Assembly: GCA_035532155.1 (NCBI GenBank)
Contig: DATKRN010000022.1
Location: 8,078 to 72,077, forward strand
DNA length: 64,000 nt
Origin: Verrucomicrobiia bacterium
GTDB lineage: Bacteria > Chloroflexota > Dormibacteria > Aeolococcales > Bog-877
Reading direction: 5' to 3'
Below are positions 22,959-38,599 of the stretch, piece by piece (positions within the stretch are counted from its first letter, which is position 1; the number at the start of each line of letters is the position of its first letter). A program made the position numbers and the translations under genes. The notes under the pieces are model-generated. The model did no database searches. It saw nothing but the letters and a program-made list of their open reading frames with translations, and was not told the origin of the DNA.

Positions 22959-25148
22959 ATGCTGCGCCTGCATGACACGCTGGCGCGCGGCGTACGCCCG
23001 GTGGAGCCGGCCGAGCCCGGCCGGCTTGGCCTCTACAGCTGTGGACCGACCGTGTATCGCTCCGCGCACATCGGCAACCTGCGCACCTACCTGCTCGCGG
23101 ACTGGATCAAGCGCACCGCCCGCGGCGCCGGCCTCGAGGTCCGTCACGTCAAGAACATCACCGATGTCGGCCACATGCGCCAGGAGCTGGCCGAGCGCGG
23201 CGGCGACAAGGTGATCGCGGCGGCGCTGGCCGCGGGCCGCACCCCGCAGGCGATCGCGCGGGCCTACGAGGACGAGTTCCACGCCGACGAGGCGGCCCTT
23301 CTGATCGGGCCCGCGGACGTCTTCCCCCGCGCCACCGAGCATGTGCCCGCGATGCTGGACCTGGTGGCGCGGCTGCTGGCCCGCGGGCTCGCCTACCAGG
23401 CTCAGGGCTCCGTCTACTTCGACACCAGCGCCTGGCCCGACTACGGTCGCCTCTCCGGCAACCTGGCCCCCGCGCAGCTGGCCGCGGCCGCCGGCGAGGC
23501 CGACCCGCTAAAGCGCCACCCCGGCGACTTCTCGCTCTGGCGGGCCGCCGAGCCCGGGCGCCGGCTGATGGTGTGGGAGAGTCCCTACGGGCCCGGGTTC
23601 CCGGGCTGGCACATCGAGTGCTCGGCGATGGCGATGGCGCACCTGGGCGAGACGTTCGACCTCCACACCGGCGGCGTCGACAACATCTTCCCCCACCACG
23701 AGGACGAGCGCGCCCAGAGCGAGGGCGCCACCGGGCGACCGTTCGCGCGCGCCTGGGTCCACGGCCAGCACCTACTCGCCGACGGCCTCAAGATGGCCAA
23801 GTCGACGGGCAACGTGTACACCCTCGCCGAGCTGCGCCGGCGCGGCTACGATCCGCTCGCCTTCCGATATCTGTGCGCCACCGTCCACTACCGGACCCCC
23901 CTCCACTTCACCCTGGCCACCCTGGCGGGCGCACAACGGGCGCTGCAGCGGCTGCGCGCCGTGGTCGCCGCGGGGCGGCGCGACGGCGCCGCCGACCGCG
24001 ATCCCGAGCCCCAGGTGGGGGCCCGGCTCCGCGCCGAGGTGCAGCGCCTGCTGGAGGACGACCTCGGGGTGCCGGCGGCGCTCGCCACCTGCTGGCGGCT
24101 GGTGCGCCACGACCCCGCCGGGCCCCCCGCCAAGTCGCTCGCCCTGCTCGGGGTCGAGCCGCTCCTCGGTCTCGGGCTGGACCAACCGGCGTCGCCCCCG
24201 GCACCGGACTCCGGCTGGCGCCGCGATCGGCTGGCCCGGGAGCGGGCCCGGGCGTCGGGCGGCTGGGAAGCGGCCGACCGCGCTCGTGTGCGGCTGGCTC
24301 GGGGTGGAGTCGTGCCCGAGGATGGGCCCACCGGGACCCGGTACCGCGCCGCCACCGCACTCGACCGCCGCCGCGGCCTGATCTCCAGCCCCGCGGAGGT
24401 CGAGGATGGTCGCGAACGACCCGATCGCGTCGAGGTCACGGTCAGCCTGGTCTGCAACGGCCCCGCCCCCGATGCGGTTCGCTGCGTGGAGAGCCTGCTG
24501 GCGCACCGCGGGCCCAGGGGCGTCGAGATCGTGGCGCTCGACAACGGCGCCGACCCCGACACCGGCGCCGCGCTGGACCGACTGGCGGCGGATCACCCCG
24601 CGGTGCTGGCTCTCCACGCCGACCACCGCCTGGGCGAGGGAGCGGCCCGCAACTGCACCCTGCGCGCGGCCACCGGGCGGGTGGTTCTGCTCGCCGACAC
24701 CGGGCTGGAGGCGGTCGGCGACTGCTTCACCCCGCTGCTGGCGGCGCTGGCCGACCCCGAGGTGGGAGCGGTCGGACGCTTCGGGGTGCGCTCCCGGGAC
24801 ATGCGCGAGTTCACCCTCTCGGATGCGGTCACGGTCGACGCCGTCGAGGGGTACTGCCTCGGGTTCGCCCGGCATCGGCTCCTCGAGATCGGCCTGCTCG
24901 ACGAGCGCTACCGGTTTTACCGACTGCTCGACTTCGATTGGTCGATGCGGCTGCGCGCCCACGGGCTGGAGAATCGGAGGATCCCCGACCTGCCGGTGCG
25001 AATGCACCTTCACCGGGGCTGGGAGGAGACCGAGCCGGAGGAGCGCGAGCGGCTGAGCCGAGCTAACTTTCGCCGCTTCTACGACCGCTGGCACCATCGT
25101 CAGGATCTGCTTATCAGCGCAACGGACCCGCCGCCGCGGTCGGGGTGA
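22959..25148 (+). CDS. cysS: Fusion protein: N-terminal cysteinyl-tRNA synthetase-like enzyme (catalytic and anticodon-binding-like regions), C-terminal GT2-family glycosyltransferase domain
   Basis: Single uninterrupted ORF (22797..25148). ATG at 22959 gives MLRLHDTLARG... Class I motifs are HIGN (HIGH-like) and KMAKS (KMSKS). Zn/Cys-binding residues are conserved (SCGPTVY, WHIECSAM, FPHHEDE). A CysRS-like C-terminus reads ...DDLGVPAALA...GW..DRLARERARASGGWEAADRARVRLARGGVVPEDGPTGTRY. It then continues in frame into a GT-A/GT2 domain (...VSLVCNGPAPD...VEIVALDNGADPDTG...RNCTLRAATGRVVLLADTG...DFDWSMRL...). Confidence 0.7.
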   Translation: MLRLHDTLARGVRPVEPAEPGRLGLYSCGPTVYRSAHIGNLRTYLLADWIKRTARGAGLEVRHVKNITDVGHMRQELAERGGDKVIAAALAAGRTPQAIARAYEDEFHADEAALLIGPADVFPRATEHVPAMLDLVARLLARGLAYQAQGSVYFDTSAWPDYGRLSGNLAPAQLAAAAGEADPLKRHPGDFSLWRAAEPGRRLMVWESPYGPGFPGWHIECSAMAMAHLGETFDLHTGGVDNIFPHHEDERAQSEGATGRPFARAWVHGQHLLADGLKMAKSTGNVYTLAELRRRGYDPLAFRYLCATVHYRTPLHFTLATLAGAQRALQRLRAVVAAGRRDGAADRDPEPQVGARLRAEVQRLLEDDLGVPAALATCWRLVRHDPAGPPAKSLALLGVEPLLGLGLDQPASPPAPDSGWRRDRLARERARASGGWEAADRARVRLARGGVVPEDGPTGTRYRAATALDRRRGLISSPAEVEDGRERPDRVEVTVSLVCNGPAPDAVRCVESLLAHRGPRGVEIVALDNGADPDTGAALDRLAADHPAVLALHADHRLGEGAARNCTLRAATGRVVLLADTGLEAVGDCFTPLLAALADPEVGAVGRFGVRSRDMREFTLSDAVTVDAVEGYCLGFARHRLLEIGLLDERYRFYRLLDFDWSMRLRAHGLENRRIPDLPVRMHLHRGWEETEPEERERLSRANFRRFYDRWHHRQDLLISATDPPPRSG

Positions 25149-25163
25149 CCCGCCCGGGCGCGC

Positions 25164-25814
25164 TCAGGCGCTCGCGCCCGGCTCCAACAGGGCGAAGCGA
25201 CACCACAGGCTGACCGTGACGGTCTCCTCCCCCGCCTCCACCGCCATCGCCGCCGTCCCGGCGAGGGCGCGCCGATGGTTGCCCGGCACCGGCGCCGAAC
25301 CGTCCTCACCCGCCTCCACCACCCGCAGGACCGGACCCAGCCGGTGGCCCAATCCGACTGCCAGGGCGGTCGCCTGGGCGACCGCCCGCTCGAGAGCCAG
25401 GGTGCGGGCGCGGGCGCGGGCCGGGGCGGAGTCCGCCACCGTCCAGGCCAGGCCCCCGACAGTGAGACTGGTCGGCAGAGCGGATGCCACGGCATCGAGG
25501 ACAGGCCCGACGGCGGCCAGCTCGTCGAGCTGAACCACCAGCCCGTGGACGGCGCGGAACCCGGCCGGCTGACGCCCCCGGGGGTCGTGGATCGGGTGCA
25601 GCTGCACGGTCGAGGTCTGGCGGTCGAGAGCGGGGATGGCGGCCGCATCCAGGCAGTCCCGCAGGCGCTGCGAGTCGTCGGCCAGCTGCCGCAGCGCCAG
25701 GCCCGGGGTGGTGGCCCTGCACTCGACCCCGAGGGTGAGGCGCACCCGGTCCGGCGGGACCCGCGCCTCGCCGGTCGCGGTGACCTCGACCAACGGCGTG
25801 CGGCGCCCCCCCAT
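25164..25814 (-). CDS. SIMPL (DUF541) domain protein
   Basis: This is the C-terminal 216 aa of ORF 25164..26159, starting at ATG (MGGRRTPLVEVTATGEARV...). The upstream codons are compositional read-through. No signal peptide is evident. Confidence 0.55.
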   Translation of the reverse strand: MGGRRTPLVEVTATGEARVPPDRVRLTLGVECRATTPGLALRQLADDSQRLRDCLDAAAIPALDRQTSTVQLHPIHDPRGRQPAGFRAVHGLVVQLDELAAVGPVLDAVASALPTSLTVGGLAWTVADSAPARARARTLALERAVAQATALAVGLGHRLGPVLRVVEAGEDGSAPVPGNHRRALAGTAAMAVEAGEETVTVSLWCRFALLEPGASA

Positions 25815-26183
25815 CGGGGAGCCAGCGTAGCAGACGGCCAGCCGCCGGCTCGGCTCGGGCGGCTCCGATCGTCGCCGTCCGAGCCCCGCCGCTCCCGCTC
25901 GGCCTCCTCGGCGTCGCGCTGAGAGGAGACCGAGGCGAGATCGTCGGCCGCCAGCCGGCCACGCCGGCGGGGGCGCGGGGCTCGAGCTCGAGGCCGCGAC
26001 CCCGAGCCTGCGGCTGGTGGTCGAGACCGGGCCCTCGTCGACGCCCCCTGCGACCCACGCTGCAGCACACGGCCAGCAGTCAGGACGCCACGGCCGGGGG
26101 GGCGGCAGGGGACACGAGGTAGGCGCGCCGGCGGTCCCGGGCCACGCGGCGGACCCCAAAGCCGGCCGGGCCGGTGGCGCTCG

Positions 26184-26942
26184 TCATCCCGGGGGCCGCA
26201 GGAAGCGTAGCAGCGCCGCCGCTCGCAGGGGCCGGTCGAGGTGATGGCCGAGGTGGGCCACCAGCAACGCCTCCAGCTCATCACGCAGACCCGCGGTCCA
26301 GCGGACGTGGTCGTACAGCTCCCGATCACCGGCCGCCATGCGGCGCAGCAGCCGCAGCGTGGCCGCATGACAGGCGAGGGCGGAGGGGTCGAGATCGGCG
26401 CAGCGCCCCTGGATGACGCCGCCCCGACCCGGCGCAAAGGCGGCATCGCCGTTCACCAGGGGCCCGCCGCACGCGGCGCAGCGGTCGACCACCGGGCGGT
26501 AGCCGACCTGGTCCGCCGCCTCCAGCGCGAACCAGGCCAGCTCCGCCCGGGCGTCCCGCCTGGGATCGGCCACCTGGGTCAGCGTGGTGGCCACCAGCGA
26601 ATACAGGCGCGGCTGCGCATGCGCCTCCTCCAGGACCGCGTCCGCGACCCCTGCGACCACCCCCGCACAGGCGGTGCGGGTCAGATCGTGGCCGGGCCAG
26701 GGCCGGCTGAGGCGCTCGGCCTGGGTCACCACCACGAGCCCCCCCCGGCCCGGGGCGAGCTGGAGGGAGCAGCGCGAGAAGAGGTCGAGGGCGGGGCTGA
26801 GGCGGGATCGAGGGCGGCGCGCGCCCCGCACGATCGCACCCACCTTCCCGTGTCCACCGGTGAACAAGGTGAGGATGCGATCGGCGTCGGCGTAGTCCAC
26901 CCGGCGCAGGACGATCCCCTCATCGCGGAACGGCAGCGCCAT
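26184..26942 (-). CDS. recO: DNA repair protein RecO
   Basis: N-terminal OB fold (...EGIVLRRVDYADADRILTLFT...) and a Cys4 zinc motif CAACGGP...C. Confidence 0.85.
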   Translation of the reverse strand: MALPFRDEGIVLRRVDYADADRILTLFTGGHGKVGAIVRGARRPRSRLSPALDLFSRCSLQLAPGRGGLVVVTQAERLSRPWPGHDLTRTACAGVVAGVADAVLEEAHAQPRLYSLVATTLTQVADPRRDARAELAWFALEAADQVGYRPVVDRCAACGGPLVNGDAAFAPGRGGVIQGRCADLDPSALACHAATLRLLRRMAAGDRELYDHVRWTAGLRDELEALLVAHLGHHLDRPLRAAALLRFLRPPG

Positions 26943-26953
26943 CGGGGCCGGGG

Positions 26954-28357
26954 TCAGCCCCGGTCCGGTGCGTCCGGAGGCGGCGGATCGGCCGCGGCGG
27001 CCAGCGGAGCCGCCGGCACCTCCGCCCCGAGGGTCGGGACGGAGGTGCCCCCCGTCCTTCCGTCGAGGTCCTCCTCGTCCACCTCCGGCGGCGCGAAGGG
27101 GCGGGCGCCGCGCACCCGGACGGTGCGGATCGACTGGCGCCGCACGGACTCGACGGTGAGGGTGACGTCGGGCTCGACGGCGATCGTGTCGCCGACGGTC
27201 GGGATCCGCCCGAGCCGCGCGTACACGTATCCCCCGAGGGAGTCGAAGTCGTCCCCGGTCAGCTGCAGGTGAAGCAGTTCGTTGACGTCATCCAGACTGG
27301 CCCGCGCGCTCACCAGCGCCTCGGCGGGAGCGATGATCTGGACCTCCTCCGCCTCGGCCTGGTCGTACTCGTCGCGGATCGGACCGACGATCTCCTCCAG
27401 GACATCCTCGATCGTGGCCAGGCCGGCGGTGCCCCCGTACTCGTCCACCACGATGGCCAGGTGGACGTTCTCCCGCTGCATCTCGTGGAGCAGCTCGCCG
27501 ACGCGCTTGGACTCGGGAGTGAAGTGCGCCGGCCGAGCGACCTCCCGCAGGGAAGGTTCGCCCGAGTCGCCTCCAGCGCGGGTGCGCGCCCGGAGCAGGT
27601 CCTTGGCGTAGACGACCCCGACGATGTTGTCGACGGTCTCCTCGAAACAGGGGATCCGGCTGTGGCCGTGCGTGAGGACCAGCTGGATGGCGTCGGCGAG
27701 CGGGCGTGCGACCTCGATCGCGACCATCTCGACCCGGGGCACCATCACCTCGCGGACGGCCTTGTCGGTCATCTCGAAGATGCCATGGATCATCTCGCGC
27801 TCGCCCTCCTCGACCACGCCCTCCTCCTCCCCCACCGCGACCAGCATCTTCAGCTCGTCTTCGGTGAGGAAGGGCCCGCGCGCGGCGGAGCGGCCGGCGC
27901 GCGCGCCGGTGAGCAACCCGGTGACCAGCGTCAGCAGCCGCACTCCTGGCGCCAGCACCCAGGTCAGCCCCGCCACCGGGCGCACCAGCACCGCGGCCAC
28001 CCGGTCAGCGTGCTGCAGAGCGTACGACTTGGGGCCGATCTCACAGGCGATCAGCACCACCACCGACAGCGTCACCGTCGACCAGAACGCGGCCGAGTGC
28101 CCGAAAGCCTGGACCGCCAGCAGGGTGGCGCAGGTAGAGGCGACGATCACCGCGACCGTGTTGGTGACCAGAATCGCCCCGAGGTAGGCGTTGGGCCGGT
28201 GGTGCAGTCGATCGATCGCGACCGCGGTGGGGTCGCCCTCCTCCCGCCGGGCCCGCAGCCGGATGCGGCTCAGCGAGGTGAGGCTGGTCTCGGCGCTAGC
28301 CGCGAAGGCGGCCGCGAGCAGGGCCACCACCAAGATGGCGATCAGGGGGGCGCTCAC
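26954..28357 (-). CDS. Hemolysin-family CorC/HlyC (TlyC) protein: DUF21 membrane domain, CBS pair and CorC_HlyC domain
   Basis: ORF 26954..28456. The GTG at 28357 gives VSAPLIAILVV... (DUF21 TM region). It carries CBS domains and a C-terminus ...DDFDSLGGYVYARLGRIPTVGD.... It lies immediately upstream of recO. Confidence 0.7.
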   Translation of the reverse strand: MSAPLIAILVVALLAAAFAASAETSLTSLSRIRLRARREEGDPTAVAIDRLHHRPNAYLGAILVTNTVAVIVASTCATLLAVQAFGHSAAFWSTVTLSVVVLIACEIGPKSYALQHADRVAAVLVRPVAGLTWVLAPGVRLLTLVTGLLTGARAGRSAARGPFLTEDELKMLVAVGEEEGVVEEGEREMIHGIFEMTDKAVREVMVPRVEMVAIEVARPLADAIQLVLTHGHSRIPCFEETVDNIVGVVYAKDLLRARTRAGGDSGEPSLREVARPAHFTPESKRVGELLHEMQRENVHLAIVVDEYGGTAGLATIEDVLEEIVGPIRDEYDQAEAEEVQIIAPAEALVSARASLDDVNELLHLQLTGDDFDSLGGYVYARLGRIPTVGDTIAVEPDVTLTVESVRRQSIRTVRVRGARPFAPPEVDEEDLDGRTGGTSVPTLGAEVPAAPLAAAADPPPPDAPDRG

Positions 28358-28667
28358 CGGTCCGGCGCGACCCGCGAGGGGTGATCCGGCGACCCCGCCG
28401 AGTGGCGCAGGTCCGCCGCGGCGCGGGCATGCCGCACGGGTGCGCCGGCGGCGCACCCCTGCCCGCCGTCCCCACAGCCTTCCCGCGGGACCCGCGATCG
28501 TCGTCCGGGCGAGCCGGGGCCCATCTCGACGGGCAGTCTACCAGTCCGGCGCTGGTGCTCCCGGTGCGCCCCGGCGGTGCGAGAGAGCCGCCCGGGTCGG
28601 CATGGGTGGGCGGGGGACCGGCGCGGCCGCCCGGGGCCGGAGCGCGCGCGGGTCGTAGGGGTGAGCC

Positions 28668-29722
28668 TCAGGATCGTGGGCGACCTCGGACCCTGGCTCG
28701 GATCCCGGGACGTGGGCGGCTCCGCCGGGGTACGCCGACGACGATCCCGTGGCCACCCCCCCTGGTGCAGCGAGCGGTACGGTCCTTCGAGATTGGTGAC
28801 CCGCGCGAGGGGGCGAGGCCACCGAGCGCCCTGTGGGCGCGACGGGGATCGTAGGTGTGCGGCCAGCGCGGCAGCGCGTGGGCGCGGGCGGTGTGGGAGA
28901 GGTAGCGGCGGATGTGGGCCCCCTCATCCAAGAAGCTCCGGTGGGAGCGCTTGACCGTGCCGTAGCTCTGAAGGTGGTAGGGGCGCCGGTGGGTGGTGGG
29001 GGTCGCGGCCGGGCCGGGGCGACGTCGTAGCTGCCATAGCCGGCGCGGTTGTCGGGGAGGACACGGTGGGCAGGGACGCCAGGGGTGGTCCAAAAGGCCA
29101 CCGCCTGGCCCCAGCAGGCCGCGCAGGTGGTCGCCCGCTCAGCGGCCAGGATCTCGGTGGGGGCCACCCAGGCGTGATCGTCCCGCGCCGAGGGCAGCAA
29201 CTCATCGCCGCCGGCGCGCCGGCCCACGCGGTGGTGGCGGCCCCAGGCCCCGCCCCAGCGCTCGATGGCCCCCAACCCTATGGAGTCCGGCCCCGCGTCG
29301 TGACGTCGACGGGGATGCGCTCCCCGGGGGCGGCGTGCTCGTAGTGGCGCATCACCCGGCCGGTGGGCCGGTCCCGCCAGCGCACCCGGTTGAGCCCGAG
29401 GCGGACCAGCACGCGGTGCACGGTGGAGGCGGCCAGCCCGAGGGCCGGGCCGATCCGGGCCCCACGTGCGCGTGCGCCGCAGCGGCGCGATCCGGTGCTC
29501 GAGGCGCCGGGCCAGCCGGCGCGAGCTGTGCCGGAGCACTGAGGGCCGGTCGCGCAGGCCCTCGACCCCCTCCGCCTGGTACCGGGCCCACCACCGGGAC
29601 GCCGGGGGCCGGGAGATCCCCATCTCCGCCGCGCTATGGGCGATCGGGCGGGCGTCCGTGGGGATCCGCTCGCGGAGCCAGAGCCGGCCCGCCGGGGTCA
29701 CGCGTGGGCTAGGCTGGGGCAT
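28668..29722 (-). mobile_element. IS481-family transposase, degraded (pseudogene, multiple frames)
   Basis: ORF 28538..29722 has the N-terminal HTH ...AAEMGISRPPASRWWARYQAEGVEGLRDRPS..., then a DDE-core remnant (...DELLPSARDDHAWVAPTEIL...RVLPDNRAGYGSYD...). The C-terminal ...TVKRSHRSFLDE...YDPRRAHRALGGL lies in a different frame (ORF 28668..29093). No clean inverted repeats were identified. Confidence 0.55.
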
Positions 29723-30373
29723 GAGAGCCTCCTGCGTGGGGGCTGGCAGTGCTCCACCTACGCTCGGAGACTCTCTTCCTCCCTGTCAACAACCTCCGTG
29801 GGCACTGCAGCTAGCCTGCTTTCCGGCGGACGATCTGAAGGATGGCCTCAGTTCGCGCCGAACCCTCGCCTCCAAGGGGACGACCCGTCTGACCACCGGG
29901 CACGCGCTCTGGCCCGGGCAGCCCGGAAATGTTGCCGATCCTGTATCGCCACGATGGGCCGCATCCGAGCTGCTTTGAGATCCTCGTCCGGCATCTGGGA
30001 CCGGCAGGCGCGTGCCCGGCCGCCATCACCTCGACCGTCACTGCGTTTATGAATGGGCAGGTCCGGGCGGGTGGCAGTCCAGACGTGCTGCCGCCGCGGT
30101 CCATCACCGGGGCGCTGCTCGCACTCATAGCCGAGATGGCGCCGGTGCTCGGTCACACCGCCTGCTCCGCTGAGCTGCCCAGCAACGGTCGCTTCAAGCG
30201 GCTAGACGTCGACGGCACTCCTTGGAGACCCGCCGGCTCCGCCTCACGCGGGACTTCGGCCGGGTCGCGGCTCACCTCCGCGGCCGCCCGCAATGGCTCA
30301 GGCTGCGCCGGCTGCGGGCACGTCGCAGTCGGCCCATCGCCCCCGTCGCCGGTCCGTCTGGCGCCCCTGTGAG

Positions 30374-30529
30374 CTACCAGTAGTACCACCGCCCGCCGCG
30401 GGGGCGGAACGCAAAGCCGACAAGCCACAGGATCAGAGCGATGACGGCGATGATCCACAGGAGGTGAATCGAGATTCCGACACCGAAGAGGATAGCGACC
30501 AGCACGAGGAAGCCGAGCAGCGCGATCAC
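30374..30529 (-). CDS. Small membrane protein (51 aa), lmo0937-like family
   Basis: Below the ORF-track size cutoff. Reverse-complementing 30374-30529 gives V/MIALLGFLVLVAILFGVGISIHLLWIIAVIALILWLVGFAFRPRGGRWYYW-stop (two TM, LWLVGF motif). Its GTG overlaps the TGA of the upstream gene. Confidence 0.45.
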   Translation of the reverse strand: MIALLGFLVLVAILFGVGISIHLLWIIAVIALILWLVGFAFRPRGGRWYYW

Positions 30530-30861
30530 ACGTCACCACCCACCAGGGGCCGCCCCTGAGATGACGGGCCGCGATTCGCCATCAGCATGATCAGGCGAGC
30601 CACGATCCACGCGCCGATCGTGTACACGATGATGGCCACGACATCAGCCCAGTGGGTCACGTGGCCGGTGGTAAGGGTCTGCTCGGAGAACGTCCCTTGG
30701 AATGGCGCCGCGATGGAGCCGGCCACCTGGGCGACGAATGAGACGAATCCGGTCTCGTTGGCGGCCAGGATCTTGAAGACGAAGTCCATGGCCAGTACGA
30801 TGTCCACGATCCCGATCGCGAGCCACACAGCCTGGGTCCAGCGCGGACCGGTGTTCAGCAC
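30526..30861 (-). CDS. YggT-like small integral membrane protein
   Basis: ORF 30526..30861 (...WLAIGIVDIVLAMDFVFKILAANETGFVSFVAQVAG...). GC is lower than the window average. GTG start without a clear RBS. Confidence 0.4.
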   Translation of the reverse strand: MLNTGPRWTQAVWLAIGIVDIVLAMDFVFKILAANETGFVSFVAQVAGSIAAPFQGTFSEQTLTTGHVTHWADVVAIIVYTIGAWIVARLIMLMANRGPSSQGRPLVGGDV

Positions 30862-30975
30862 GGTCGTGCGCGTGCGCCGGAATCGCTCGCGGGATTGGAT
30901 GGGGAGTCCAGGTGCGCTCGGTGGCGACGTCGACGACTGCTCGACGATCGCCTCCTCAGTTTGAACGTCGCGACT

Positions 30976-30979
30976 CTAA
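30976..30979. repeat. Target-site duplication CTAA (left copy) of the IS5-family element. The right copy is at 32348-32351.
   Basis: Identical tetranucleotides immediately outside both terminal inverted repeats. YTAR-type targets are typical of IS5-group elements. Confidence 0.55.
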
Positions 30980-32347
30980 CAGGGTGCTGAAAAACCAGCC
31001 ATCATCACCGGCCCCCGAGCGCTCTCGGATGTGAGAGTCTTGGTCCAGCGAGTTGGTCTGAGGAGGACAGGTGATGCGGGGACCGGTGATCTACCAGACG
31101 GCGATGCTGTCCGCCGTCACCACCGAGGATCTGGTACCCACGGACCACCCCATTCGCCGGATCAAGCCGGTGGTGGACGCCATCCTGGTCGACCTCGAGC
31201 CCACCTTCCGGCAGATGTACTCGGTCATCGGGCGGCCGAGCATCCCGCCCGAGCATCTGCTCAAGAGCACGGTGCTGATGGCGATGTACTCGGTGCGGAG
31301 CGAGCGCCAGTTCTGTGAGCGGCTCCAGTACGACATGCTGTTCCGCTGGTTTCTCGACCTGGGCATCGAAGACCGTGTCTTCGTCCCCACCACCTTCACC
31401 AAGAACCGCGAGCGGCTGCTCACCCACGAGGGGGCGGACACGTTCTTCCAGGCCTCGGTGGAGCAGGCGCGGCTGCGCGGCTACGTCTCGGACGAGCATT
31501 TCACCGCCGACGGCAGCCTGCTCGAGGCATGGGCCTCGGTCAAGAGCTTCACGCCCCGCACCGAGAGCGGCCACGGGTCGGCCGCCAGCGGTGGCGGCGC
31601 TGGGCGCGATCCCGAGGTGGACTTCCACGGGGAGAAGCGGAGCAACGCGACCCATCAGTCCACCACCGATCCCGAGGCCTTGCTGATGCGCAAGAGCAAG
31701 GCCCACGCGGCCAAGCTCTCCTACGCCGATCACGTCCTGATGGAGAACCGCTCCGGCCTCATCGTCGCGACGGAACTCACCCCGGCGACCGGGTACGCCG
31801 AGCGCGACACCGCGATCGCGCTGCTCACGCGGCTGCCCGGCGCGGGCCGGCAGCGCCGCACCCTCGGCGTCGACAAGGGGTATGACACCCGTGACTTCGT
31901 GAAGGGGTGCCGCGCGCTCAAGGTCACCCCTCACGTGGCCCAGAATGTGAGCGGGCGCCGCAGCGCCATCGACGACCGGACCACCCGCCATACGGGATAC
32001 GCGGTCAGCCAACGGATCCGCAAGCGGGTGGAGGAGATCTTCGGCTGGAAGAAGACCGTGGGCGGCTGCCGCAAGCTTCGCTTCGTGGGCCGGAAGCGCA
32101 ATCGCATCTGGACCCTGTTCAGCGGAGCGACGTTCAACCTCACCCGGATCGCCACCCTCGATCGTGACGCCGCCCTCCGGGCGGCATGAGGGCGCCGGGA
32201 GCGGCCGCGCGGAGCGAGCCGGGGGCTCCGGCGGGCGGTCCAGCCGCCACCCCGGAGGCCGCCACGGGGCGACGAGCGCCTCGGGCCGCTGACCGCGACC
32301 AGCTTGGCGGCCCAGACATCTCGTGAGGTCGCTATTTCAGCACCCTG
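30980..32347. mobile_element. IS5-family insertion sequence (~1.37 kb), intact
   Basis: Perfect 13-bp terminal inverted repeats CAGGGTGCTGAAA at 30980-30992 and (reverse complement) 32335-32347. One transposase ORF. Flanked by 4-bp direct repeats CTAA at 30976-30979 and 32348-32351. Confidence 0.7.
31071..32189 (+). CDS. IS5-family (DDE_Tnp_1) transposase
   Basis: ORF with an RBS GGAGGA upstream, a DDE-type core (...GVDKGYDTRDF...), and the C-terminal ...EEIFGWKKTVGGCRKLRFVGRKRN.... Confidence 0.85.
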   Translation: MMRGPVIYQTAMLSAVTTEDLVPTDHPIRRIKPVVDAILVDLEPTFRQMYSVIGRPSIPPEHLLKSTVLMAMYSVRSERQFCERLQYDMLFRWFLDLGIEDRVFVPTTFTKNRERLLTHEGADTFFQASVEQARLRGYVSDEHFTADGSLLEAWASVKSFTPRTESGHGSAASGGGAGRDPEVDFHGEKRSNATHQSTTDPEALLMRKSKAHAAKLSYADHVLMENRSGLIVATELTPATGYAERDTAIALLTRLPGAGRQRRTLGVDKGYDTRDFVKGCRALKVTPHVAQNVSGRRSAIDDRTTRHTGYAVSQRIRKRVEEIFGWKKTVGGCRKLRFVGRKRNRIWTLFSGATFNLTRIATLDRDAALRAA

Positions 32348-32994
32348 CTAATCCATGGCTATCGCCTCCTTGGATGCGGCAACGCGAGCTCCCTCCAAAC
32401 CCTTGGGTGAGGAAACCATGCGATTTTGGCGGCCACCGAGGAGTGCCCCGCGCTCACTGGTCATCAGTAATCCAATCATATCTCGAAGGGTCATCCTCAA
32501 TCGAGGATCGTCTGTCGGAACGAGGGCGTCGGTCTGCTGGCGTGCCGAGCGGACGACCACCTCGGGGCTGGCTCCCACGCGGATTGGGATCAGCGCGCCA
32601 ATCGCTTGTACGAAGCCGTCGACCTGATGGATGCTCGGCGACTTGGCGATCGGGCGCCGGATCGGGGCCTTGTGGCCTGAGCTGACCGAGCGGCAGGGCC
32701 GGTGATCAGATAGACCACGCCCTCGCCCCGGTCGTGCAGCGCACGGTGCTCGCTGGCGTGACTGATGGCGTCCGAGTTCACGGCGCCGAGGCCCCGGCGG
32801 TAGGCCAAGCTGCCAAGGGCGTGCAGCCCCGCGTGGTCCTCGACCTGGTGGCTGCCTGACTCCACCACGACGCGGGCGGTCTTGGTCGCCTTCATCTGCG
32901 ACCCGCCTACCTGGTTGGAGTGGCTGCCGTCTCGACCACACCGGTGTCCCTCTCCGGAGGGAATTTCTGCAGCTTCACACCCCGCGATCGTCAA
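32348..32994 (-). other. Coding remnant(s) between prs and the IS5 element. Two overlapping partial frames. The downstream frame's TAG stop lies within the CTAA target duplication.
   Basis: ORFs 32590..32994 and 32348..32941 sit in different frames; both read as plausible protein in parts. The function was not recognised. Possibly one frameshifted gene. Confidence 0.25.
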
Positions 32995-33013
32995 CCCCCG
33001 TGAAGGCTGGCAG

Positions 33014-33965
33014 CTAGCGGAACAGCTCGGAGACGCTGCGGCCCTCGTGCACCCGCACGATCGCCTCCGCGATCAGGGGCGCGACCGAGACCTGACGGAG
33101 CTTGGGGAAGCGGAGCGCCCCGCTGGGCAAGGGGATGCTGTCGGTCACGACCACCTCGTCGATGGGCGCATCGCTGAGCCGCTCCAGCGCCCCCTCGGCG
33201 AGCACCCCGTGGGTGGCGAGCACGTCCACCGAATGCGCCCCCTTGGAGCGGAGCGCGTGAGCGGCGCCGACCAGAGTGGCCCCGGTGCCCACCAGGTCAT
33301 CCACCACCACGCAGGAGCAGCCCTCGACGTCGCCGATCACGTTGACGATCTCGACGTCGTCGTCGCGCGGACGGCGCTTGTCAATGATCGCCAGCGGCCG
33401 GTCGAGCCGGCGCGCGATCGAACGGGCCCGGGCGGTACCGCCGACGTCCGGCGACACCACCACCAGATCGTCCTCGGGGTGACGCTCCTGGATGTGGCCG
33501 GCGAGGATCTTGCTGGCGGTGAGGGAGTCCACCGGGATGTCGAAGAAGCCCTGGATCGCCTCGGCGTGCAGATCGAGTGCGATCACTCGCTGCGCCCCCG
33601 CCACCTGCACGAAGTTCGCCATCAGCTTGGCCGATATGGGGTCGCGGGGCTGGGTCTTCTTCTCCTTGCGGGCGTAGCCGTAGTAGGGGATCACGGCATT
33701 GATGCGCGCGGCGCTGGCGCGACGCAGGGCGTCGAGAATGATGAAGAGCTCCATGTAGGTGTTATTGACCGGGTGGCAGGTCGGCTGGATCAGGAAGACG
33801 TCGTGCTCGCGCACCGATGCCGCGATTTTCACGTCGAACTCCCCGTCGGCGAAGCGGGTGACCGCCATCGGGGTCAGCGGCAGCCCCACCTCGGCCGCGA
33901 TCCGGCGCCCCAGCTCGGGATGGGCGGTTCCGCAGAGCAGCATGAGGCTGTCATCCGCGTGACTC
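33014..33965 (-). CDS. prs: Ribose-phosphate pyrophosphokinase
   Basis: This is the C-terminal 317 aa of ORF 33014..35812 from ATG (MSHADDSLMLLCG...). PRPP synthetase motifs are present (...DLHAEAIQGFFDIPVD...VVSPDVGG...VDDLVGTGATL...). RBS GGGAGGGG. Confidence 0.85.
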
Positions 33966-35415
33966 ATCCCGGTTCCCCTCCCGGTGTCCGGTCCGCCGCC
34001 CGGGCCGGCGGCCGAGCCTCCCCATTGTCGCGGCTCGCCGGTGCGCGCCGCCCGGCGCGCCGCGCGACCCAGCCGAGCAGGGTGCGCTGGCGAGCCCGTG
34101 CCAGCCCGAGTGACCCCGCCGGGACGTCCCGGGTGATCACTGAGCCGGCCCCGGTATAGGCGCCAGCGCCGACGGTCACCGGGGCCACCAGGATGGTGTC
34201 GCTGCCGACGCGGGCCCCGTCGCCAATGACGGTGGCGTGCTTGTCCCGACCGTCCCAGTTGGCGGTGATCGTCCCGGCACCCACGTTCACGTCGCGGCCC
34301 AGGGTGGCGTCCCCGAGGTAGGTGAGGTGGGGGACCAGGCTGTGCGGGCCGACCCGGCTGCGCGCCACCTCGGTGAAGGTGCCGAGACGGCTGTGGTCCT
34401 CCAGCACCGACCCCGGGCGGATCCGATTGAAGGGTCCGATCGTGACCCCGTCGCCGAGGCGGCAACCGGCGAGGTGGGCGGTGGCGATCCGGCAGCGGTC
34501 GCCGGCCTCGGTGTCCTCCAGCTGGGCGAAGGGGCCGACCACGCAGGCGCGTCCGAGACGAGTCCGCCCGGCCAGCACGCTCCCCGGCCGGAGCACGGAG
34601 TCGGGCCCCACCTCGACGCCGGCGTCGACGTAGGTGGTGGCCGGGTCCTCCACCGTGACCCCGCTGCGCATGAGCCGGGTCAGCACCCGCCGGCGCAGGC
34701 TCGCCGCCGCCGCCGCGAGCTGGACCCGATCGTTGACCCCCAGCATCTCCTCGGGGTCGCCGAGCTCGACGGTGGCGACCCGGCCCAGCCGCGCGGGCGC
34801 GTCGGTGAGGTAGATCTCCTGCTGGGCGTTGTCGCTGCCAAGCCGATCCAGCGCATCCCAGAGTGCGGCGGGGGCGAAGACGTAGGCCCCGGTGTTCACC
34901 TCCACGGTCGGACCGGGGCCCGGGTCGGGTCGCGGCAGCGCGGGCAGGTCTGGCTCCTCCACCACCCTCACGAAGGCGCCCTCGGGGTCGCGGAGCACCC
35001 GCCCGTAGCCCGTGGGGTCGGCCGTCATCGCGGTGAGCAGGACCGCGTCGACGCCGCCCGCCTCGAAGCGGTCCAGCAGCCGCCGGACGGTCTCGCTTCG
35101 CAGCAAGGGGACATCTCCGTAGAGGACCACCACGGGGTCGTCCCCGGCCAGCAGCGGCCGGGCGGCCCGCACCGCGTCGCCGGTCCCGCGAGGCTCGGGT
35201 TGCTCGACGACGGTCGCCCGACCCTCGAGGTGCTGGCGGAGCGCCTGCGCCCCGGGGGCGACCACCACCACCGGCGGGAGCGGCCCCGCGTCGCGAGCCG
35301 CCTCCAGCACCCAGTCGATCAGCGGGAGGCCGCAGGCGGGATGGAGCACCTTGGGCAGTTGGGAGCGCATCCGGGTGCCGCGGCCGGCCGCCAGGATCAC
35401 CACGCGCGCGGCCAT
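33964..35415 (-). CDS. glmU: Bifunctional UDP-N-acetylglucosamine pyrophosphorylase / glucosamine-1-phosphate N-acetyltransferase
   Basis: N-terminus ...VVILAAGRGTRMRS..PKVLHP.... C-terminal left-handed beta-helix hexapeptide repeats. Overlaps the prs start. Conserved glmU-prs order. Confidence 0.85.
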   Translation of the reverse strand: MAARVVILAAGRGTRMRSQLPKVLHPACGLPLIDWVLEAARDAGPLPPVVVVAPGAQALRQHLEGRATVVEQPEPRGTGDAVRAARPLLAGDDPVVVLYGDVPLLRSETVRRLLDRFEAGGVDAVLLTAMTADPTGYGRVLRDPEGAFVRVVEEPDLPALPRPDPGPGPTVEVNTGAYVFAPAALWDALDRLGSDNAQQEIYLTDAPARLGRVATVELGDPEEMLGVNDRVQLAAAAASLRRRVLTRLMRSGVTVEDPATTYVDAGVEVGPDSVLRPGSVLAGRTRLGRACVVGPFAQLEDTEAGDRCRIATAHLAGCRLGDGVTIGPFNRIRPGSVLEDHSRLGTFTEVARSRVGPHSLVPHLTYLGDATLGRDVNVGAGTITANWDGRDKHATVIGDGARVGSDTILVAPVTVGAGAYTGAGSVITRDVPAGSLGLARARQRTLLGWVARRAGRRAPASRDNGEARPPARAADRTPGGEPG

Positions 35416-35534
35416 CGGCTCGTCCTCCCCGCGCCCGCCTCCGGGGGGGGCGACCCCGCCGGAGGCGGGCGCCCGCCAGCGGGGCGGAGTATACCCGGGC
35501 CCGCCGCGACCGGCCGGAAGGGTATCCTCCCGGC

Positions 35535-36344
35535 GTGGCAGGCGCCGACGAGGCGGAGCAAGGGCCGTGCGTGCGTCGCGACCAGCCCGCGGCGGGAGTG
35601 GTGCGGCTCACCCTCGACCGCCCGGAGCAGCGCAACGCCCTGACCCACGAGATGGGGGCCGCGCTCCGCGCGGAATGTGCGCGGATCCGCGAGGAGGCCA
35701 CCGCCCGGGCGGTGGTGGTGACCGGGACCGGGCCGGCGTTCTGCGCCGGGGCCGACCTCGGGGCACTGGGCCGCAGCGGCGACGGCTGGGACCAGCGCCG
35801 CCAAGCGCTCACCGCCTACTATCGCGCCTTCCTCGATCTGCGCGACCTCCCCATCCCCTCGGTGGCGGCAGTCGGCGGTGCCGCGGTCGGCGCCGGTCTC
35901 AACCTCGCGCTCAGCTGCGATCTGCGGGTGGCGGGCCGACGGGCGCGCTTCGCGGCCTCGTTTGTGCGGGTGGGAATTCACCCCGGCGGCGGTTGCACCT
36001 GGTTCCTCACCCAGACCGTGGGGCCGGCGCGCACCCGCGAGCTGCTCCTGCTGGGTGAGATGGTGGACGCCGAGAGGGCGGAGCGGATCGGGCTCGTCAA
36101 CCGCGTGGTGGACGACGACCGAGTTCAGGCCGAGGCGGTCTCCCTGGCCGCCCAGCTCGCCGCCGGCCCCGGCGACGTGGTCCGCAACATCCGGCAGGCG
36201 GTGACACTGGCCCAGTCGCACGGGCTCGACGCGGTGGTGGCGTTCGAGACCGGGGCGCAGGCCGCCTCGCTCATGTCCGAGGACGCCCGCGAGGGTTGGC
36301 AGGCGTTCTTGGAGAAGCGTAGGGCGGTGTTCGGCCCGCGCTGA
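35535..36344 (+). CDS. Enoyl-CoA hydratase/isomerase (crotonase) family protein
   Basis: ...VVVTGTGPAFCAGADLG...AAVGGAAVGAGLNLALSCDLRVA.... The start codon is uncertain (GTG at 35535 or an internal GTG). Confidence 0.7.
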   Translation: MAGADEAEQGPCVRRDQPAAGVVRLTLDRPEQRNALTHEMGAALRAECARIREEATARAVVVTGTGPAFCAGADLGALGRSGDGWDQRRQALTAYYRAFLDLRDLPIPSVAAVGGAAVGAGLNLALSCDLRVAGRRARFAASFVRVGIHPGGGCTWFLTQTVGPARTRELLLLGEMVDAERAERIGLVNRVVDDDRVQAEAVSLAAQLAAGPGDVVRNIRQAVTLAQSHGLDAVVAFETGAQAASLMSEDAREGWQAFLEKRRAVFGPR

Positions 36345-36347
36345 CGG

Positions 36348-37841
36348 TCAGAAGAGCCCCGGCACCAGCGGCGCCGGGGTGAGGTGGCGGGCGCGGATCA
36401 GGCTGACCAGCCGCTGCAGCTCGCCCGTGAGCCCCGGATCCCAGTGCAGCAGGATGATCTCGCCGGCCTCAAGCGGCTCGCCGTTCCAAGTTTGGATGCG
36501 CCCGTTGGTATCCGTGGCGCTCCAGAGCACGATTCCTCGCAGCCCCGCCAGCCGGGCCGCCCGCAGCACCGACGGGTCGGCGTCTCCGTAGGGGGGCCGG
36601 CCCAGCGTGGGGGACCTCCCCAGCCACCGCTGCAACCGCACCCGGTTGGCGGCCCACTGCAGCAGGGCGCCGCGGGGCGTCAGGGTGTTGAGGTCGGGGT
36701 GGGACACCGTGTGGTCCTCGATCACCCCCCCGGCGGCCACGAAGGCCCGCCAGAAGGGAATGTCCTCGCGGACCGCGTCCGCGATCAGGAAGGTGGTGAT
36801 GGGGAGGTGGAAGCGGCGCATCAGCCGGAGCACCCCTACGCTGGGAAACCAGCCGTCGTCGATGGTGATGTAGAGGCGACCCCTGGCCGGGTTCCCGAAG
36901 GAGTAGACCGGAATCGTCGGACCGGGTGGAGACCCGGGCCGCCCCCCTCGCGGCCGCCGGGCGCGGCGGCCGGGTGATCGGCGCGGGGAGGGCAGCAGGA
37001 GCGCGACCGCCCCGGAGGCGACCAAAGCCCCGTCGCGTCCCGCCAGCGGCGCGGCCGCGGGCACGACCACCCTGAGCCGGCCGCCCCGGGGCCACCCCGA
37101 GCGGGGCACGAAGCGTAGCGTCGAGGTGCCCACCGTCTCCCACCGGCCCGCCACCGCCGGGGCGAGCGGTAGGCCGGCCCGGCCTCGCCCCCAGCGAATC
37201 GGCTGAGCGAACCGCACCAGCAGCGGGGTGCGCCGGCCCAGGCGCGCCGGGCCGGCGGTCCACGCGACCGCCGCCAGCGGTGGAATCCGGACCACCAGCT
37301 GGGTCTGCTCACCGTCCCGGGCGGTGACCCGCAGGCGCAGCCGCTGCGGTCGCGCGGTGCGCGCCAGCCGAACCGCCGTCCCGGTGGCGGCAACCACCCC
37401 GGGCGCGGCGCGACCGGGGGCAGCGAGCACCGCCCCGACCCGGACGTCGAAGCGAAGCTCCAGCGTGCGGGCCGCGAGCCGACTCAGGCGCAGCTGGGGA
37501 GCGGGTGGGACCCGCAGCGTGACCAGCTCCGTTCGCGGCGGCAGACCCGCCAGCTCCACCCGCTCGCGCACGCGTTCGCCGGGACGGAGCTGCTGGACGG
37601 CGTGCTGACCCCGCCGTCTCCCCGCCAGCTCGAGCCCCGCGTGGTCGAGGAGCCAGCCCGCCAGCGGCCCCGACCCGACGGCCAGGCCCAGCTGCAGCCG
37701 GTTGTCGGCGGGGCGCAGGCGCCAGCTCAGGCGGGGCTGGCCGACCGCCACCGCGACTCCGAGCAGGGCGACCCCGGCGAGCCCAGCCAGCGTGACAACC
37801 GCCGCCCGCCGGCGCGGACGTCGGCCCCCCGGCCCCGGCAC
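36348..37841 (-). CDS. Membrane-anchored polysaccharide deacetylase (CE4/NodB) family protein
   Basis: This is the C-terminal part of ORF 36348..38813. The GTG at ~37841 follows GGAGG. A TM anchor ...AAVVTLAGLAGVALLGVAVAVG is followed by an extracellular region and a C-terminal NodB domain (...RLYITIDDGWFP...IEDHTVSHPDL...). The upstream 320 codons overlap nth and are an artefact. Confidence 0.65.
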   Translation of the reverse strand: MPGPGGRRPRRRAAVVTLAGLAGVALLGVAVAVGQPRLSWRLRPADNRLQLGLAVGSGPLAGWLLDHAGLELAGRRRGQHAVQQLRPGERVRERVELAGLPPRTELVTLRVPPAPQLRLSRLAARTLELRFDVRVGAVLAAPGRAAPGVVAATGTAVRLARTARPQRLRLRVTARDGEQTQLVVRIPPLAAVAWTAGPARLGRRTPLLVRFAQPIRWGRGRAGLPLAPAVAGRWETVGTSTLRFVPRSGWPRGGRLRVVVPAAAPLAGRDGALVASGAVALLLPSPRRSPGRRARRPRGGRPGSPPGPTIPVYSFGNPARGRLYITIDDGWFPSVGVLRLMRRFHLPITTFLIADAVREDIPFWRAFVAAGGVIEDHTVSHPDLNTLTPRGALLQWAANRVRLQRWLGRSPTLGRPPYGDADPSVLRAARLAGLRGIVLWSATDTNGRIQTWNGEPLEAGEIILLHWDPGLTGELQRLVSLIRARHLTPAPLVPGLF

Positions 37842-37912
37842 CCCTCGACCTCCCCCTGGCGGCCCCAACCCATCCGGCCTCTGCGCGGGCAACGGGACCC
37901 GAGCCCCGGCGG

Positions 37913-38599
37913 TTACGCGGGCAGCCGCCCCGAGGTCGCCCGCCGGCCCCGAGCGAGCGGGGAGCCCGGACACCAAGCCACCAGCAGGCAGGCGGAGCAG
38001 CGCGGCCGGTTGGCGATGCAGACCCGCCGACCGTGCTCGATCAGGCGCAGACCGACGCGGGTCCACTGCGAGCGGGGCAGCATCGCACACACCTGCTGCT
38101 CGATCGCCACCGGGTCGCGAGTGGCGACCACGCCGAGGAGATTGGTGAGTCGGATGACGTGGGTGTCGACCGCCAGCCCAGGAATGCCGAAGCCCACGCC
38201 GAGGACGACATTGGCCGTCTTGCGCCCGACCCCGGGCAGCCGGGTCAGCTCGGCCATGTGGCGGGGCACGGCACCCTGATGGCGCTGCTCCAGGGCGAGG
38301 CCGAGCGCCACCAGGGTGCGCGCCTTGACCCGAAAGAACCCCGTCGGCCGGATCAGCGCCTCCAGCTCGATCACATCCGCCCGGGCGAGGTCCCGGGCGG
38401 ACGGGAAGCGGGCGAACAGCCCGGGGGTGACCTGGTTCACCCGCTCGTCGGTGGTCTGGGCGGAGAGCACGGTCGCCACCAACAGCTGGAGGGGTCCGTC
38501 GTGGACCAGGGCACAGCGGCCGGGGTACGCGCTGGCGAGAGCGCGGCACGCGGCCCGGGCACGGCCCGCCGGCGTGCGCGGTCGAGACGCCGAGGCCAT
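37913..38599 (-). CDS. nth: Endonuclease III
   Basis: HhH-GPD motif (...LPGVGRKTANVVL...) and an Fe-S cluster C-x6-C-x2-C-x5-C (CIANRPRCSACLLVAWC). Confidence 0.85.
   Translation of the reverse strand: MASASRPRTPAGRARAACRALASAYPGRCALVHDGPLQLLVATVLSAQTTDERVNQVTPGLFARFPSARDLARADVIELEALIRPTGFFRVKARTLVALGLALEQRHQGAVPRHMAELTRLPGVGRKTANVVLGVGFGIPGLAVDTHVIRLTNLLGVVATRDPVAIEQQVCAMLPRSQWTRVGLRLIEHGRRVCIANRPRCSACLLVAWCPGSPLARGRRATSGRLPA

Follow-up and report, generated by a model that had tools for sequence, protein, structure and literature searches.

An autonomous insertion sequence (IS) of the IS5 family has, judging from its sequence, almost certainly transposed in the recent past into a CTAA tetranucleotide between prs and a gene for a small membrane protein of 111 amino acids. 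The locus lies on a contig of a metagenome-assembled genome (MAG) and was analysed within a stretch of 64,000 nucleotides, which is referred to below as the window. As a member of the IS5 family the element is unremarkable, and a correct annotation of its transposase already exists in the public record. What is new is minor and consists of the exact boundaries, a clean pair of empty and occupied sites, and the share that a soil lineage has in the IS5 target rule. The element and its neighbouring genes comprise the following features (positions are those of the window).

30374..30529, minus strand: gene for a small membrane protein of 51 amino acids, with sub-threshold matches to DUF5670 and the lmo0937 family
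30526..30861, minus strand: gene for a small membrane protein of 111 amino acids (HUY96856.1)
30976..30979, no strand: left CTAA copy of the target-site duplication, read directly; a single CTAA is found here in the insertion-free contig L001
30980..32347, plus strand: complete IS5-family insertion sequence of 1,368 bp, its ends fixed by the empty site
30980..30992, plus strand: left terminal inverted repeat of 13 bp, CAGGGTGCTGAAA
31074..32189, plus strand: transposase gene, 371 amino acids, starting at ATG 31074 (NCBIfam, Pfam and the NCBI record)
32335..32347, minus strand: right terminal inverted repeat, the exact reverse complement of CAGGGTGCTGAAA (13/13 perfect)
32348..32351, no strand: right CTAA copy of the target-site duplication, from direct reading and the empty site
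33014..33967, minus strand: prs, ribose-phosphate pyrophosphokinase, the first confidently called gene to the right of the element (from gene calling and Pfam matches on L001; HUY96858.1)
33964..35415, minus strand: glmU, the next gene after prs (gene calls and Pfam on L001; HUY96859.1)

Structure and family assignment of the element

With 1,368 bp, one transposase open reading frame (ORF) and short terminal inverted repeats, the element has the format of a compact IS of about 1-1.5 kb. A pattern search of the 64 kb found two perfect matches to CAGGGTGCTGAAA, which are the two arms of the element, and the same arm pair at 30980 and 32347 was recovered by a repeat finder. Beyond the 13 bp the arms diverge, with 16 of 20 positions matching by eye. 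The only long ORF between the arms extends from 31071 to 32189 on the plus strand. Translation could start at GTG 31071, giving 372 amino acids, or at ATG 31074, giving 371; the latter is favoured because a GAGGAGG Shine-Dalgarno sequence is present at 31060-31066. The ORF is full length in comparison to its homologues of 361-372 amino acids. A preliminary description of this DNA had given the same coordinates, perfect 13-bp repeats and an intact transposase ORF, all of which are exact to the base. Its worry that the indexing of the inverted repeats or of the duplication might be off is dispelled, as the repeats match at these positions.

The transposase passes the NCBIfam model for the IS5 family (NF033581) with 232.4 bits at a cutoff of 140, and Pfam DUF772 (73.7 bits) and DDE_Tnp_1 (35.9 bits) are both above their cutoffs. 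In an alignment with 19 homologues of 63-92% identity, residues D146, D267, E320/E321 and K327 are invariant, which corresponds to a DDE triad followed by a basic residue (K/R) seven positions after the glutamate. The IS1182 model (NF033551) yields 202.9 bits, which is below its cutoff of 270 and does not assign the protein to that family. An N-terminal DUF772 region and a DDE_Tnp_1_6-like C-terminus are common to the transposase and the IS1182 family, but the match is confined to three stretches of the 488-position model, and the protein is approx. 100 residues shorter than the model.

The type element of the family, E. coli IS5, offers a second comparison. Its transposase InsH1 from MG1655 passes NF033581 at 366 bits, and pairwise BLASTP of the element's transposase against InsH1 gave no significant match. 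A profile comparison to InsH1 reached a probability of 93.8% (E 1.7e-7) over 248 columns, in which VDATIIEA, ADAGYQG and RVEHPF..K of InsH1 align with ADGSLLEA, VDKGYDT and RVEEIFGWKK of the element. The kinship to the type element is therefore visible at the profile level only. Like the element, E. coli IS5 (InsH, IS5 group) has a single DDE transposase gene that passes NF033581, and the short terminal inverted repeats of both share a GGTGC..GAA core (GGAAGGTGCGAATAAG in the element and CAGGGTGCTGAAAAAC in E. coli IS5). E. coli IS5 also resembles the element's lineage in duplicating 4 bp at YTAR, with CTAG used far more often than CTAA or TTAG (PMC5009759; PMC5493358). The two differ in length (1,195 bp for E. 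coli IS5, 1,368 bp for the element) and in the size of the transposase (326 amino acids for InsH, 371 for the element), with about 24% identity over the profile alignment and approx. 40 extra residues in the element's protein between the first two catalytic aspartates. They also differ in their hosts, since the element resides in an uncultured soil bacterium with 73% GC. By its profile matches and catalytic residues the element is a distant but genuine member of the IS5 family, and the label given in the preliminary description holds on three grounds, namely the NF033581 score, the invariant DDE and lysine residues, and the YTAR duplication.

The exact 371-residue protein is already present at NCBI as HUY96857.1, 'IS5 family transposase', on a contig of 230,888 bp, and this exact sequence is known only from the one NCBI MAG and from related metagenome contigs. 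More distant relatives are abundant, with more than 8,000 transposase homologues at E<=1e-20. In species-representative genomes, 333 relatives were found; they come from many phyla, including Acidimicrobiia, Dormibacterota, Acidobacteriota, Dehalococcoidia and Myxococcota, and are often present in multiple copies per genome. The best match among these genomes has 76% protein identity (an Acidimicrobiaceae MAG), and the best plasmid match has 54%; plasmid relatives are annotated as 'IS5 family transposase'. The element thus has its closest parallels in un-named IS5-family elements of soil MAGs and alphaproteobacterial plasmids, which share its architecture, CAGG[G/C]TG[C/T]TGAA termini and YTAR duplications.

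A search for further copies had been proposed in the preliminary description. It found no second copy within the window at either the DNA or the protein level. Elsewhere it was successful: copies with 92-95% DNA identity and the same perfect 13-bp ends are present at no fewer than three other loci in metagenomes.

NCBI lists the source MAG as 'Verrucomicrobiae bacterium' (the record of HUY96852-HUY96859), and the window has a GC content of 73%. The closest relatives of the IS are found in MAGs of Acidimicrobiia, Dormibacterota, Solirubrobacteraceae and Pseudonocardiaceae. The Verrucomicrobiae label may therefore be wrong, although IS kinship is weak taxonomic evidence because an IS moves horizontally.

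Empty and occupied alleles of the insertion site

An exact-protein look-up of the neighbouring 111-residue gene product led to four contigs. L001, an 82-kb metagenome contig (ENA ERZ27256801), contains the locus without the element. It aligns with the window over 38233..32348 at 100% and over 30979..24526 at 99.97% identity, and the two blocks overlap by exactly 4 bases. The empty site in L001 reads ...AAGGAGGCGATAGCCATGGA-TTAG-AGTCGCGACG..., which corresponds to a single CTAA on the plus strand of the window, and the empty junction sequence is GCCATGGATTAGAGTCGCGAC. Since L001 has one CTAA and no element, the CTAA pair in the window is a true target-site duplication. The preliminary description had left room for a coincidental pair and had suggested a comparison with strains that lack the insertion; L001 provides the reconstructed empty site and shows the duplication to be genuine.

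The occupied site was also found outside the window. The left junction is present in contigs L002, L003, L004 and L087, and the right junction in L089, L090 and L091. In two samples, ERZ27256814 and SRR8554483, both junctions occur. Altogether the occupied site was detected in at least five other samples, with flanks that are at least 99.9% identical. The 4.5 kb of right flank is 100% identical across all contigs, and the 6.4 kb of left flank contains one SNP between the empty L001 and the occupied L003. Populations with flanks of 99.9-100% identity contain both the empty and the occupied allele, and the insertion is therefore recent. It still segregates, as a young polymorphism, in what is one lineage at the population level. 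The claim of a recent insertion in the preliminary description is thus borne out by alleles on near-identical flanks and by the undamaged state of the element.

The junction-bearing contigs other than L001 break off inside the element. Examples are L002 (window 31552-31680), L003 (window 31232-31352), L089 and L090. Within the IS, all mismatches of the broken contigs to the window fall in the final ~170 bp ahead of the break. Such clustering is what is expected if assemblers mix reads of several diverged IS copies, and points indirectly to more than one copy of the element in these communities.

The breaks and the nearby mismatches indicate that the repeat is hard for assemblers, and one might ask whether the element owes its position to a false join of contigs at an IS repeat, with a CTAA pair that arose by chance. 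The probability of such an assembly artefact is practically negligible, because both junctions are independently reproduced (the left in L002-L004 and L087, the right in L089-L091), because L001 has the two flanks directly joined through a single CTAA, and because a false k-mer path cannot arise from a 4-bp repeat.

The polarity of the event is a separate matter. As only one empty-site contig was found and occupied contigs are several, polarity rests on parsimony, by which we infer that the occupied allele is derived, i.e. that an insertion and not an excision took place. Alternatively, the occupied allele could be the older one and the lone empty-site contig a revertant formed by precise excision, which would likewise leave a single CTAA and would agree with the finding of occupied alleles in at least five samples and of the empty allele in one. 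This alternative is very improbable. DDE insertion sequences very rarely excise precisely between 4-bp repeats, the element is undamaged, with perfect inverted repeats and an intact ORF, and the two alleles are flanked by virtually the same haplotype, which a very recent gain explains equally well or better.

Target preference and the overlap with a stop codon

The CTAA duplicated by the element conforms to the 5'-YTAR-3' motif that has been described for IS5 duplications (PMC5009759). The same preference is found among its relatives. Their termini were located by anchoring on CAGG, as a palindromic CTAG duplication lengthens the apparent inverted repeat, and the CAGG[G/C]TG[C/T]TGAA terminus is present throughout, in dozens of relatives. 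Identical 4-bp flanks were seen in 53 of the 68 relatives with both termini, and all of these are YTAR (CTAG in 49, CTAA in two and TTAG in two). The copies with 92-95% DNA identity that have both ends intact are flanked by CTAG on both sides; one of them, in L086, is 95% identical, has the same length of 1,368 bp and lies at a different locus. An ISfinder tally of IS5 targets lists CTAG 15 times, and CTAA and TTAG three times each (PMC5493358, Table 3). The YTAR preference is thus shown to be lineage-wide, in agreement with the published IS5 target.

Two further copies deserve description. A 92%-identical copy of 1,369 bp with CTAG on both sides is located at 2407-3775 of L093 and at the same site in L094-L100, where it lies within the final codons of a gene for a zinc alcohol dehydrogenase. 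As called, the dehydrogenase ORF extends 11 bp into the element and stops at the TGA of the terminal repeat (CAGGGTGCTGA), so that its stop codon is provided by the IS end. Another 92%-identical copy, in L101-L106 (e.g. L101 2408-3775), has a degenerate left tip, GCGGGTGCTGAAA, and unmatched flanks, ACCG on the left and CTAG on the other side. It adjoins an rve-integrase (IS30-like) gene and is probably a rearranged or nested insertion.

The preliminary description had emphasized that the element is placed exactly on the stop codon of a neighbouring minus-strand gene. Two minus-strand ORFs are relevant here.

32348..32941, minus strand: ORF of 197 amino acids from the preliminary description, with its TAG in the right CTAA; unsupported as a gene
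32590..32895, minus strand: orphan ORF of 101 amino acids in a different frame, over the upstream half of the 197-residue ORF (metagenome gene caller)

The TAG of the longer ORF (32941..32348) occupies 32350..32348 and is the complement of the CTA in the right CTAA. The same TAG closes this ORF in the empty site, and the insertion has therefore changed nothing in the 197-residue frame. Any YTAR contains TAA or TAG in one frame per strand, so that every insertion of the IS5 lineage sits on the stop of some ORF. Open frames are long in the window because of its 73% GC: of all stop triplets, 9.2% terminate a frame of at least 200 codons, and among the YTAR sites (25 distinct ones, or 26 occurrences when both copies of the target-site duplication are counted) seven have such a frame on one strand. 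The open frame closed by the TAG in the right CTAA has 208 codons. Hence, the coordinates in the preliminary description are right, and the significance attached to them was over-read. The overlap between duplication and TAG is a built-in effect of the YTAR target and does not indicate selection or special placement.

The landing of the element at the edge of an ORF is likewise as the target distribution predicts. The pre-insertion window contains 25 YTAR sites (0.40 per kb), for which base composition predicts about 290, and most of them fall outside confidently called coding sequence; the stop of prs is itself a CTAG. In E. coli, the YTAR density is 7-14 per kb (PMC5009759 Table 5). Of the 24 tetranucleotides that contain A, C, G and T once each, CTAG is the rarest in the pre-insertion window, with 18 copies compared with 53 to 530 for the others; a second-order Markov model predicts 78, approx. 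4-fold more. CTAA, TTAG and TTAA are also infrequent, yet near expectation. The host is thus strongly depleted in the target that the element's lineage prefers. A shortage of CTAG is known from bacteria in general, and no claim of target avoidance is attached to its depletion in the window.

A different reading of the overlap would be that the 197-residue ORF is a real gene and that the element was placed, or selectively retained, exactly at its stop, sparing the gene. The ORF does exist, its TAG lies inside the right CTAA and is the same in the empty site, which leaves the ORF unaltered, and its downstream half has some frame-consistent GC3 (0.78-0.80). We nevertheless consider this reading improbable. 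The ORF has no Pfam or NCBIfam match even at E<=10, and no credible homologue other than itself was found among 5.8 billion proteins or 1.8 billion representatives. The coding phase, as judged by GC3, is in frame 0 at ~32955-32690 and in frame 2 at ~32715-32450, switching near 32700, and the frame-2 value of only 0.78-0.80 is well under the 0.84-0.98 of confident genes. The gene caller selected the 101-residue frame instead. In addition, the NCBI record numbers the transposase HUY96857 and prs HUY96858, in direct succession, and lists no protein in the interval. The ORF that the preliminary description took for a neighbouring gene is thus not upheld as one, and the automatic overlap of YTAR with stop triplets on both strands remains the preferred explanation.

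Other origins of this stretch were considered and rejected. A frameshifted pseudogene of a known family is not indicated, as a frame-corrected hybrid of 182 residues has no Pfam or NCBIfam match at E<=10 and only matches itself among 5.8e9 proteins. Exhaustive HMMER searches with the C-terminal 114 residues gave four matches, which are artefacts from repetitive proteins that sum up weak repeat matches; the best single alignment has 21/62 identities and 33 bits. An IS1380-like origin of the N-terminus received no support from a permissive tblastn search of 72,556 plasmids, which returned three matches at E>=3, none of them on a transposase gene. Debris of a repeated element is not indicated either, as blastn and tblastx found no second copy of the orphan stretch in the window or in the fetched loci. 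The region of the 197-residue ORF is 100% identical in all contigs.

Neighbourhood, proposed mechanism and implications

The target site is located within a 781-bp spacer between prs and the 111-residue gene, 115 bp upstream of the start of the latter, and the element is antiparallel to the flanking genes. That it physically separates glmU and prs from the pair of small-membrane-protein genes, as the preliminary description had anticipated, is seen in the gene order. A scan around the site gave no sigma-70 promoter matches and, as to terminators, only weak hairpins inside the IS, which is uninformative for a high-GC organism. Rfam and tRNA scans of the whole window gave no matches.

The spacer is unusually long for so compact a genome and contains orphan sequence. 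Across ~29600-33800, which covers the small ORFs, the IS, the orphan stretch and prs, GC falls to 63-70%, compared with 75-80% on either side. A decayed transposase pseudogene of the IS481 family is present at 28538-29722 on the minus strand. Its N-terminal helix-turn-helix part is contained in a 394-residue ORF (NF033577, 73.6 bits at a cutoff of 224), and two further frames contain profile positions 99-141 (29278..29421) and 219-281 (28668..29093), respectively. L001 has this remnant as well, so that the IS5 element landed amid existing mobile-element debris.

A direct repeat of 10 bp with two perfect copies, which read AGGAGGCGAT on the minus strand, further brackets the CTAA at 30947-30956 and 32361-32370 of the window. 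In the empty site the two copies of AGGAGGCGAT are 42 bp apart (L001 5866-5917). The upstream copy contains a Shine-Dalgarno-like AAGGAGG, followed after 8 nt by a mini-ORF of two codons, ATG-GAT-TAG, which ends at the stop within the right CTAA. In the absence of the element, this TAG shares its reading frame with the GTG start of the 111-residue gene, 38 codons downstream. The mini-ORF and the repeat are possibly a regulatory leader for this gene, or a product of chance.

From what is generally known of DDE transposases, transposition would begin with binding of the transposase to the 13-bp termini. Staggered cuts of 4 bp would then be made at YTAR and the 3'-OH ends of the element joined to the target, and repair of the gaps by the host would leave CTAA duplicated on both sides. 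The IS5 mechanism itself has not been directly studied (PMC5493358). With empty and occupied alleles in natural populations and further copies at other loci as indirect evidence, the element can be regarded as probably active.

In E. coli, glpFK, bglGFB and flhDC are activated by IS5. By analogy, the insertion could be a segregating regulatory polymorphism for the 111- and 51-residue pair, either by blocking read-through from glmU-prs or by activating these genes. We regard this as a speculative and rather unlikely effect. If it were true, the apparent predominance of the occupied allele across samples might reflect selection rather than drift.

For the IS5 family, the boundaries, termini and target are now precise for an un-named but common element of soil bacteria, which may deserve a name in ISfinder. 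The pair of empty and occupied sites in natural populations constitutes a usable marker for strain tracking. The locus also calls for caution when DNA is read from its letters alone: elements that target YTAR overlap stop codons automatically, and in DNA of 73% GC long ORFs that end at a YTAR are common and are no evidence of a gene.
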